The position numbers were made by a program, and so were the translations under genes. A stretch of 64,000 nt of DNA from Trueperaceae bacterium (GTDB lineage: Bacteria > Deinococcota > Deinococci > Deinococcales > Trueperaceae). Below are positions 24,609-43,088 of this stretch, in pieces. The DNA lies in contig CBDCDZ010000004.1 of the NCBI GenBank assembly GCA_965215565.1, positions 576,001-640,000 of the forward strand, in the 5' to 3' direction. The notes under the pieces were generated by a model that ran no database searches, was not told where the DNA came from, and worked only from the letters and a program-made list of their open reading frames with translations. Position 1 is the first letter of the stretch, and each line of letters opens with the position of its first letter.

Positions 24609-25247
24609 TTATTTGCTCTTCCCCCCACCACTCAGCGCCGCCCCCACACCAAGCAACACATAGATACTCCCGCTCACGTAGTGCTGAACGCTAAGAAACC
24701 GTCGGCTCTGCTTGAGCCAGGTGCCAAATGAGCCTGCCAAGAGCGCGTAAAGTCCGTCACTCAAGAGACCGATGACGATAAACAGCGCACCGAGCACGAG
24801 AATCTGCACCTCGATATTGCTTTTTGAGACGGCGACGAACTGCGGCAGAAAGGCGAGGAAGAAGATAGCCGACTTGGGGTTGAGCACGTTGATGACGACG
24901 CCCTCGAGGAAAATCTTACGAAGCGGTTGCAGAGTTATCTCACCTGCTTGGGGGGCGGCAGGTCGACTCAGGAGTTTATGCACACCCAGATAGATGAGGT
25001 ACGCCGCGCCTAAATATTTAACGAGGCTAAACGCAACGGCTGAGGACGCGAGCAGCGCGGAGATGCCTAATGCCGCCGCAAAGATGTGGACGAGCGCGCC
25101 GACAGCCGCGCCTAAAACAGAGACCAAGCCCGCCGTGCGCCCCTGCTCCAAGCTGCGGGCGACGACGTAGAGCACGACGGGACCAGGTGTAACAACCAGA
25201 GCGAACGCCGCGCCTGCAAAGAGAAGGAGGGTGGGGATGTCGGGCAT
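24609..25247 (-). CDS. LysE/RhtB family amino acid exporter
   Basis: TPGP, GAAYLIYLG, NVLNPKSAIFFLAFLPQF. Confidence 0.93.
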   Translation of the reverse strand: MPDIPTLLLFAGAAFALVVTPGPVVLYVVARSLEQGRTAGLVSVLGAAVGALVHIFAAALGISALLASSAVAFSLVKYLGAAYLIYLGVHKLLSRPAAPQAGEITLQPLRKIFLEGVVINVLNPKSAIFFLAFLPQFVAVSKSNIEVQILVLGALFIVIGLLSDGLYALLAGSFGTWLKQSRRFLSVQHYVSGSIYVLLGVGAALSGGGKSK

Positions 25248-25278
25248 GATTGGACCTCTTTCTGAAAACAGTTAAAAG

Positions 25279-25364
25279 CAACGAGCAATGAGTGACGAGT
25301 AAAAACTTTTTAGACTCATTGCTCATTGCTCGGAACTCATTGCTTCTCTTTCCTCATTGCTCGG
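25279..25364. repeat. Heptamer repeats (CTCATTG / CAATGAG)
   Basis: Four CTCATTG copies in 25315-25359, another at 25489, inverted copies at 25279-25299. Confidence 0.65.
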
Positions 25365-25486
25365 TAGGTGAAGGCACAGGTGATCGCTGAACAGGTGAAG
25401 GCTAAGAGCCTATAGAGCTTTGCTCTAACCTGTGCGACCGGCTTTACGCCGTAACCTGTAAAGCCTTTGAGCTTCGCTCTAACCTG
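25365..25486 (+). mobile_element. Triple-nested ~41-nt structured element (CAGGTGA...TAACCTG)
   Basis: Inner 25392-25432, middle 25377-25458, outer 25365-25486; each reconstructs to 40-41 nt. Confidence 0.8.
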
Positions 25487-25495
25487 TACTCATTG

Positions 25496-26581
25496 CTATA
25501 CTTTTAGCCGCTCGTACTCGTTTTCAGACGGCAAACCCCACACCGCCCAAAACTCGCCCGTCGCAGGTCTCATGATCGCTGCGCCGCACGACTCGACGTG
25601 GTGGGGTGGCTTGGAGGTGACGCAGATGGCGTCGGGGTCTCTCGTCACGGCTTTTAAGTCCTCTTCGGTGATGTCGCCTTTCGCTAAGAGGTTATGACCT
25701 CTTTGCAGTCGCGCTTCAGAACTCGCTTGTGAGGTCTCTTCGCGGGTGCGTTCGACGCCGCGTGTCGAAGAGGTCAGGCAGTGGTTCGTGTGAACGAGTG
25801 GTTCGTCCCCTAACTCGGTGATATGTGTACGCGTCGGCATCGCTTCGACGTTGTAGCCTCTGCCCGTTTTATCCATCAAGAGATAGTTGTGTGCGCCTGC
25901 GAGTTTGACGTCGGTGATGCAGGCTAAAGCGTCATCTGCGGTGGACTGCTCGAGCGCTTTGCGAATCACAAAAGGCCACGTCACGCCGACTTGCCCGTCC
26001 GCGCCGCCCAAGTTGTTGATGCCGATGGCGACGCCCTCGCTGTTCATGCCGATCATCCCGACGCAACCTACCGTTGTAAAGGCTAAAAACTCGGGCTTAC
26101 CTTCCAGTTTGCCGCGCAGCATGACGACGTGCGGCGTGGCGCTGTCGTGCATGTCCCAGGTTTGTCCGTAGAAACCTCTTTGATTTGCGGACGCGCTATT
26201 CGGAACGAGAAACGAGGTGCAGTTGTCCGCGCCTGCGTGAGCGGGGACTTTCGAGGAATGCGCGTTATACACCAAGTCCACGAAGTCGGTAAAACCGCCC
26301 ACGATGACCAGTTCCGCTAGGCTCAAGCCCGTCGCCTCACCGACACCTCTTAGCTCGTCCAGCAAATGCGGCGCGTAGCGCTCGTGTTCGTCCACGCACG
26401 CCTCAGCTAGCGCTAGGACCTCTTGCCTGGACAAATCTTGCCCGGACCACTTAGCGTCGCCGCTCAGCTTCACGCGCTCGCGGGTGAATTCTACGATGTC
26501 CTCCTTGAACGCCTGCCCGTGCTTGTAGCCCATCTCAAAAGAGGTGCCGGAAAGCTCCAACACCCGTAGCTTCTTCGTCAT
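25496..26581 (-). CDS. C45 family Ntn-hydrolase (acyl-CoA:6-APA acyltransferase-like peptidase)
   Basis: Autocleavage site NCTSF, GQTWD, GMNSEG, HTNH. Confidence 0.88.
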   Translation of the reverse strand: MTKKLRVLELSGTSFEMGYKHGQAFKEDIVEFTRERVKLSGDAKWSGQDLSRQEVLALAEACVDEHERYAPHLLDELRGVGEATGLSLAELVIVGGFTDFVDLVYNAHSSKVPAHAGADNCTSFLVPNSASANQRGFYGQTWDMHDSATPHVVMLRGKLEGKPEFLAFTTVGCVGMIGMNSEGVAIGINNLGGADGQVGVTWPFVIRKALEQSTADDALACITDVKLAGAHNYLLMDKTGRGYNVEAMPTRTHITELGDEPLVHTNHCLTSSTRGVERTREETSQASSEARLQRGHNLLAKGDITEEDLKAVTRDPDAICVTSKPPHHVESCGAAIMRPATGEFWAVWGLPSENEYERLKV

Positions 26582-42239: not shown

Positions 42240-42256
42240 GCGTTTCACAAAAACTA

Positions 42257-42367
42257 TAGCAGGTATCATCTGGTTTGAGCCAATCTCACATGGTAGAACA
42301 ACGACTAGCACGCACATTGTCGGATGATATCTACGCTATTTCAGTCCAATACTTTTGATAACCGCTA
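42257..42367 (+). mobile_element. MITE family B short form (111 bp)
   Basis: Same TIRs, TA duplication. Confidence 0.85.
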
Positions 42368-42391
42368 TAGTAGGGAGCCCGCAAAAATAAG

Positions 42392-42499: not shown

Positions 42500-42630
42500 C
42501 CAAACAGAAAGAGAGTCTAGCATAGGGTTTCGCGCGGGGTCAAGCCCAGCGAGCCTCAGCCTTCCCCCTTTCCTAAAAGCCTTCTTTCGTCTCCTAAACG
42601 TGAGGGGCGCGTAGGCGTTCGCCCCTCTTA

Positions 42631-42988
42631 TACGGATTCCGATTGATTACTGCATAAACTCCGACGCTTCGCGCTTCTACGGAGTCGGAGTTGATTCCGT
42701 CCCTTTCAGGGGTACTTCGTGAAGCTCATCGGAATCCGTACTTTTTCATCTCGCAAGACCCTCAGCGAGAGGTATCGTTCTCCCGGAGGAGGGCTACGCA
42801 AACGGGCAGGCACAGGTGAACGCTGAAAGCGATGCGAGCGTTGCTCGTAACCTGACCCTGCCGTTGCATCTTTCAATCTACGCGCGTAGATAACGGTTCA
42901 GTGTGCAGTCGCGTGGACCGCTCCCGTTAGCTGCTGAGGACTCTTCTCCGCTCGGGGTAATTCCTACGGGAATTACCCGGAAACCGTA
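42631..42988 (+). mobile_element. MITE family D copy (358 bp) with multiple nested small modules
   Basis: Ends shared with 32430-32655; TTA duplication. Confidence 0.82.
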
Positions 42989-43088
42989 TTATGCACGCAT
43001 GATACCGTGAACTCCTACAGAGGCGCAGCTACGCTTGCTATACTCTCTATTATCATGAATCCGATTCTCATCTCAAGAGGGGTGTCAC

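Follow-up and report, generated by a model that had tools for sequence, protein, structure and literature searches.

The small dispersed repeats (SDRs) of the Nostocaceae are reportedly 21-27 nt long, keep their structure by compensatory change, and are said to be nested in their own copies and to lie within heptamer repeats and mini-transposons. SDRs have no known mover, and copying through RNA and a reverse transcriptase is said to have been proposed for those of Nostoc. SDR5 is described as inserting precisely in HIP1 (PMC5861425, PMC4390886) and SDRs as confined to the Nostocaceae (PMC5861425). REP doublets (REPIN/BIME), double-foot REPs and TnpA-REP/RAYT are treated in PMC6006769, PMC8266576, PMC3116915, PMC3733652 and PMC3686654, and the literature covered also includes PMC3184786 and PMC2884548; the dissemination of REPs is said to be still poorly understood (PMC8266576). 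MITEs such as Correia, RUP and ERIC measure 70-300 bp and carry 15-30-bp inverted ends (PMC3733652).

Here we describe a family of non-coding elements of 40-43 nt, devoid of genes, found in a 64,000-nt stretch of DNA from a Trueperaceae bacterium (the window, which belongs to genome G000). In kind the element is like the Nostoc SDRs and the double-foot REPs, and it is a member of neither. The likeness to SDRs, which was part of the original prediction, holds for very small size, a compensatory fold, self-nesting, a place in heptamer repeats and precise insertion. It does not extend to length (40-43 nt against a reported 21-27 nt) or to clade, the SDRs being described as Nostocaceae repeats (PMC5861425); the element has terminal inverted ends and two hairpins, and its evidence favours DNA over RNA. 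With REPs and REPINs the element shares two short motif-plus-hairpin halves in inverted arrangement, a motif and its reverse complement at the ends, and occasional in-frame copies in genes. However, its foot is YAGG whereas that of REPs is GT[AG]G, no cognate RAYT is flanked by it, and it has tens of copies rather than hundreds, stems that vary freely, and nests of its own. Like MITEs, it is non-coding, dispersed and bounded by inverted ends, but it is half the minimum MITE size, its ends span 5-7 nt, it makes no duplication, and no insertion sequence with matching ends occurs among the repeats of at least 400 bp in G000. With IS200/IS605 and Helitrons it has in common hairpins near the ends, the lack of a duplication, A|T as the commonest junction and tandem copies; its ends, though, are symmetric rather than polar, there is no strand bias, and carriers have no common Y1/Y2 gene. 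The Deinococcus SNRs are larger, at 60-215 bp (PMC11276467). The kind of element is thus already known (SDR-like, REP-like), while the family itself is real and apparently undescribed: no description was found in the literature searched, which included few subscription papers, and REP tables in supplements could hold a related repeat.

Layout of the nest and extent of the family

Three left ends and three right ends, with the stems between them, were confirmed where a triple nest had been predicted (Table 1). The two parts of the outer copy add up to 40 nt and those of the middle copy to 41 nt, and the right part of the middle copy begins with T where the uninterrupted form has A. The inner copy, which was in the training set of the covariance model, also scores 23.5 bits on the minus strand. 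The nest lies between the acyltransferase and LysE genes, within the heptamer-repeat block. The copy proposed at 42813-42854 proved to be a genuine family member; together the window yields two matches against 0.07 expected by chance. When inner layers were removed by script, each layer folded with DNA parameters into a closing stem and two hairpins. The intact nest as DNA gives nested junctions (z -5.3, with none of 200 shuffles as good), and as RNA its minimum-energy fold differs (z -3.3). At gathering score, Rfam 15 found only tRNA in the window and no known structured RNA at the element, and a scan of 25200-25600 found neither promoter nor terminator.

Table 1. Positions in the window of the nested copies, the separate copy and their surroundings.
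Feature	Position	Strand	Evidence or remark
Composite of three nested copies	25365..25486	+	sequence and genome parser
Left part of outer copy (constant left end, then 5' arm of hairpin 1)	25365..25376	+	
Left part of middle copy (left end, then 5' arm and loop of hairpin 1)	25377..25391	+	
Inner copy, intact, 41 nt	25392..25432	+	covariance model, 47.3 bits
Right part of middle copy (3' arm of hairpin 1, then hairpin 2 and right end)	25433..25458	+	
Outer copy, right part	25459..25486	+	
Fourth copy, intact, 42 nt	42813..42854	+	covariance model, 37.7 bits; outside training set
Host repeat block, inverted and tandem heptamer CTCATTG	25283..25364, resuming 25487-25497	.	
Neighbour gene, LysE-type translocator, not part of the element	24609..25247	-	
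Neighbour gene, AAT-family acyltransferase, not part of the element	25496..26581	-	stop 10 nt from nest

The nest is not an assembly artefact, because contigs from another study's run contain its flank on the left and reach across that on the right, and contig ends left loose in the runs of three studies gather at its internal boundaries (25391-25393 and 25431-25434). The fourth copy is housed in a short repeat, itself part of a repeat mosaic that follows a tRNA downstream. This mosaic, about 400 nt of stacked small repeats at 42550-43080 of the window, is missing at the orthologous place in G001 and G002.

The expectation of further copies was borne out. A recursive structure parser returned 45 hits in G000, compared with 5 and 3 in two order-5 Markov controls; after four hits were dropped as chance, 41 units at 27 loci remained. 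Counting right ends more loosely gives 66 at 38 loci, with none on three small contigs, while a generic junction scan of the same genome gave 200 hits against 166 in the control and was mostly noise. The consensus runs from a fixed left end, YAGGT[G/C]A, through hairpin 1 (mostly 13 nt), a linker of 0-4 nt and hairpin 2 (mostly 11-13 nt) to a fixed right end, TAACCTR. The core measures 38-41 nt (43 in one case), to which the two end bases are added. The base before YAG is A at 42, C at 15, G at 5 and T at 3 of 65 sites. Directly upstream of the copies at G000:C4:186919 and at L019 lies a near-duplicate of the 7-nt left end.

A covariance-model search matched 12 of the 101 genomes of the family Trueperaceae, nine of which are true carriers (G000, G001, G002, G042, G152, G164, G174, G187 and G140, the last unpublished). 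Of the other three, two have single hits that lacked the architecture on inspection; single model hits outside the clade likewise lacked it where inspected (all but L229 and a few weak ones). Phylum-wide, four of 141 genomes matched, two being carriers and two having single chance-like hits. In a GTDB-wide search, each of the 15 records that matched the commonest subtype has Trueperaceae or Truepera in its title. Exact-pattern scans gave no hits in metagenome contigs (two subtype patterns) or in viral contigs (one subtype pattern). The carriers are one group of Truepera-like bacteria, kin to each other, a caveat to the enrichment of IS110 and topoisomerase IB given below; the unpublished G140 is one of the nine carriers in these tallies.

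Covariation, fold and substrate

The stems had been predicted to change in compensation. In the two hairpins they do: all nine pairs change on both sides, with a score of 0.53 that none of 500 shuffles reaches and slid controls at 0.13 or below, in a sample of 11 ungapped variants with a structure chosen by the analyst from the same sequences. This calculation relied on alignment A3; alignment A4, which holds both strands of some copies and was fitted to the model, was set aside. The closing stem, on the other hand, shows no such change, four of its five pairs never varying, and its outer Y and R bases are independent (27 C-G, 15 T-A, 14 C-A and 12 T-G; p 0.13). As the hairpin pairs covary and the ends are constant, it is shape that is kept in the hairpins and sequence that is kept in the ends. 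Given an invariant closing stem and outer Y and R bases that vary independently, the predicted three-way junction is a plausible fold, obtained by modelling as DNA, rather than a proven one. In such modelling, 74 of 77 variants, all selected for having stems, form the junction on both strands as DNA, and 62-63 do so as RNA.

The loops point to the nature of the moving form. Those of hairpin 1 hold 76 A to 22 T and those of hairpin 2 hold 15 A to 55 T; the two are often exact reverse complements, and the halves of the element are mirrored on opposite strands (a pseudo-dyad). Each strand therefore reads end, A-loop hairpin, T-loop hairpin, end, and the covariance model also scores the reverse strand of copies. 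Purine-N-A triloops, a kind of loop that is stable in DNA, are frequent. Since the halves mirror across strands and both strands fold alike, a DNA substrate is favoured over RNA. The original prediction had left movement as ssDNA or as RNA side by side; it is the RNA half that is weakened, by the mirrored loops and by the reverse transcriptase family PF00078, which was matched in one (G001) of six carriers searched. Copying through RNA and a reverse transcriptase, as is said of the Nostoc SDRs, would explain host contexts that are the same as for SDRs, as well as variable tandem spacers of 1-3 nt and ±1 junctions, which reportedly resemble template jumping. However, the scarcity of the enzyme, the predominance of mirrored triloops, and an RNA fold of the nest that is weaker than and different from its DNA fold make this route quite improbable.

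Insertion, nesting and target sites

The element is almost certainly mobile. A search for filled and empty orthologous sites found empty orthologues in G000 for two G001 sites (L028 and L019), and empty paralogues of filled host repeats were found as well. At the G001 orthologue of the nest the element is absent and there are fewer heptamer units. No target duplication occurs at any site, as had been claimed, whether judged from empty orthologues, from paralogues or from homologous proteins. Duplication of TA was ruled out as well, empty host repeats having 2 nt where filled ones show A and T.

Nesting can be followed in stages. The outer copy stands uninterrupted, without inserts, at G001:C1:480524; the same copy holds an uninterrupted middle copy at L128 (G001); and the triple nest is present in G000 in two different host repeats. 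The whole composite recurs at G000:C4:2335175 in a different host repeat, and a composite with an internal deletion lies near C4:1417980. This series, together with the triple in two host repeats, indicates that nests are built up one insertion at a time and then travel as a unit. Hairpin 1 accepts 82 nt of cargo in its loop. Covariation, empty sites and the stage series together uphold the picture of a tiny, nested, mobile element that conserves its structure, and we count movement by an enzyme in trans among the supported claims.

Insertion is mostly exact and sometimes off by one base. Sixty sites were compared with homologous proteins, most of them without an informative hit. Exact removal restores a gap-free frame at four (three IS3-like, one IS5-like); the other tested sites include an ambiguous case, a site with one base too few and a site with one too many. 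By eye, an integrase motif in the unpublished G140 and an IS3-like gene in G152 are split exactly, as are two ordinary G042 genes (42 nt, in frame). One codon of IS3-like transposases is occupied in three genomes with different junction bases. The same position seems to have been struck repeatedly in diverged IS copies (G000:C4:3669994, L182 in G002, L234 in G187, and L079). Tandem arrays have spacers of 1-3 nt, the 1-nt T spacer coming from the unpublished G140, and a G000 tandem that joins two different variants suggests that one copy inserted at the end of another and that a base was lost in the process.

Could the element have spread without being mobile itself, hitch-hiking with other DNA or multiplied by slippage and by gene conversion between host repeats? 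Many copies lie within the same host repeats, and a double nest with identical flanks occurs at non-orthologous places in G000 and G001 (L089, L152). Many other copies, though, lie within transposase genes or ordinary genes that are unrelated and share no flank homology, different variants occupy one site in both orientations, and covariation implies that the shape is under selection. Insertions in unique coding sequence already largely refute purely passive spread, which we regard as exceedingly unlikely; among paralogous host repeats, copies may in addition spread passively, carried along as passengers or transferred through gene conversion.

The flank profile (96 rows, with six chance rows removed) is mirrored, with GCA before the element and TGC after it, and the preferred target is a loose palindromic (G)CA|TG(C) in either orientation. 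Among 65 distinct sites, 28 have CA on the left and 26 TG on the right (random expectation about 5% each), 42 have either and 12 both, counts that hot spots inflate; the commonest junction is A|T (27 of 65). Targeting of hairpin loops, which had been proposed from the nest, holds for the triple nest but not in general: 15 of the 65 sites lie in a perfect hairpin of at least four pairs (random 14%) and six in one of at least five (random 4%), with perfect hairpins alone being scored and several of the hairpin-located sites being cases of self-nesting.

Candidate movers and proposed mechanism

Gene searches suggest that the carriers have no gene in common for a reverse transcriptase, RAYT, Y1, Y2 or Ku, so that the proposed correlation of the element with HUH/RAYT or reverse-transcriptase genes was not found. 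RAYT was matched in three of six carriers and not in G002, G042 or G152; the RAYT of G000 and G001 has its own, different REP, which occurs 27 times in G000, and the 1.5 kb around the gene are free of the element. The search for Y1_Tnp found nothing in G001 and G002, Y2 is missing from the carriers, and Ku was in none of five. No autonomous partner was found in G000 among 127 half-sites and all repeats of at least 400 bp. Several HUH-related loci are present. A RAYT-like gene (G000:C4:3590035-3590556, L072) lies between mutS and mutL, is syntenic in G001 and has a REP inside its own frame; a 1322-aa frame resembling a type IIG restriction-methylase (G000:C4:3784709-3788675, L001) encloses a Y1 (HUH) domain, after which come palindromic repeats that stay in frame; and at G187:C1:25058-25388 a model hit, probably an insertion into the gene, lies directly after a truncated IS200 tnpA match.

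The IS110 family, also named as a possible correlate, is present in eight of nine carriers, and also in 32 of 92 non-carriers. An IS110-family recombinase acting in trans would fit with the G000 copy and its hundreds of short derivatives, which share a 5-nt word between derivative end and element end, and IS110 is said to leave no classical duplication. IS110 also has the same core dinucleotide at both junctions, but none is shared here, the flanks being mirror images rather than direct repeats; variable stems would be ill-suited to recognition by RNA pairing, and the G042 copy of IS110 is in two pieces. We consider this recombinase a very unlikely mover.

Capture by a host enzyme, in which a type IB topoisomerase or a repair ligase would take up folded, blunt-ended ssDNA into nicks or breaks with no dedicated transposase, is improbable but agrees with junctions that differ by a base. 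A topoisomerase IB gene occurs in eight of nine carriers against 23 of 92 other genomes (Fisher p 3e-4, inflated by kinship), and both element strands terminate in CCT-purine, loosely like the site of the vaccinia enzyme. Those 23 genomes have the gene without the element, however, and the 99% complete carrier G042 has no match. The absence of Ku from the five carriers searched speaks against capture as well, and capture alone leaves copy-making and the repeated hits at one IS3 codon unaccounted for.

The reading that we put first may equally well prove right or wrong: a non-autonomous element of folded ssDNA, cut and joined by a two-site enzyme acting in trans, probably by phosphotyrosine chemistry. 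The moving form would be a folded single strand, from either strand of the element. Each half, read on its own strand, would present a fixed end and a hairpin with an A-rich loop, the ends being recognized by sequence and the stems by shape. Folding would let the two ends meet, whereas a duplex of 41 bp would hold them apart, and the enzyme would then join them into one phosphodiester bond of the target. The chemistry, the least certain step, might be HUH-type strand transfer, if IS200/IS605 and REP/TnpA-REP are taken as models; the substrates that HUH enzymes bind are short hairpins in ssDNA that have a 5' motif (PMC6006769, PMC8266576). Against an HUH enzyme stands the fact that no HUH gene tracks the element among the carriers. 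Y1 transposition is precise, whereas here junctions can be off by one, the middle copy shows a change from A to T, and the copy at L019 is 43 nt long. Replichore orientation is without bias (21 of 40), unlike IS608 and ISDra2, which favour the lagging template (PMC6006769). The folded-ssDNA reading as a whole has against it that no autonomous element with the same ends was seen and that the closing stem lacks covariation.

It is possible, though we rather doubt it, that the element is instead the substrate of an undescribed chemistry. An enzyme outside the RT, Y1, Y2, RAYT and DDE groups, or a moonlighting host enzyme (e.g. topoisomerase IB), would scarlessly insert, wherever a loose CA|TG site offers itself, any DNA framed by a pair of 7-nt ends and a pair of short stems, and would put up with 80 nt or more of cargo in a loop. 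If so, the same machinery may move the other folded inserts of 21-42 nt in these genomes and solve the SDR problem. The family bears on the open question of how elements below 50 nt move. It offers defined ends, a target consensus, natural stem variants, nesting stages, tolerance of cargo, and a clade with and without the element, which suffice to design binding and mobility assays and to hunt for the enzyme by gene presence; a scarless 41-nt cassette with cargo would also be a lead for a tool.

Other small repeats were noticed as well. G000:C4 has short elements by the hundreds whose ends match those of its IS110, and one of them lies at about 42255-42370 of the window. A spot in the end of these derivatives is plain in 208 copies and holds varied hairpin inserts of 21-25 nt in about 28. 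Among the inserts are a double mini-hairpin, seen in 10 identical copies, and a set whose stems covary; these inserts are further SDR-sized families. In G042 a second element of about 40 nt, with a closing stem, two hairpins and different ends, is nested in hairpin 1 of the family (L130, L176), and a third candidate small element lies close by at L130. A twin-hairpin unit at G000:C4:928905, 2756431, 3556043 and 4325426 also serves as host for the 40-43-nt element, and another small repeated twin-hairpin unit occurs at G000:C4:2507971 and 4291666. At G000:C4:4339136-4340279, a lone CRISPR repeat stands 1.1 kb beyond a 10-repeat array, and the gap between them holds small genes and four element copies within 250 nt.
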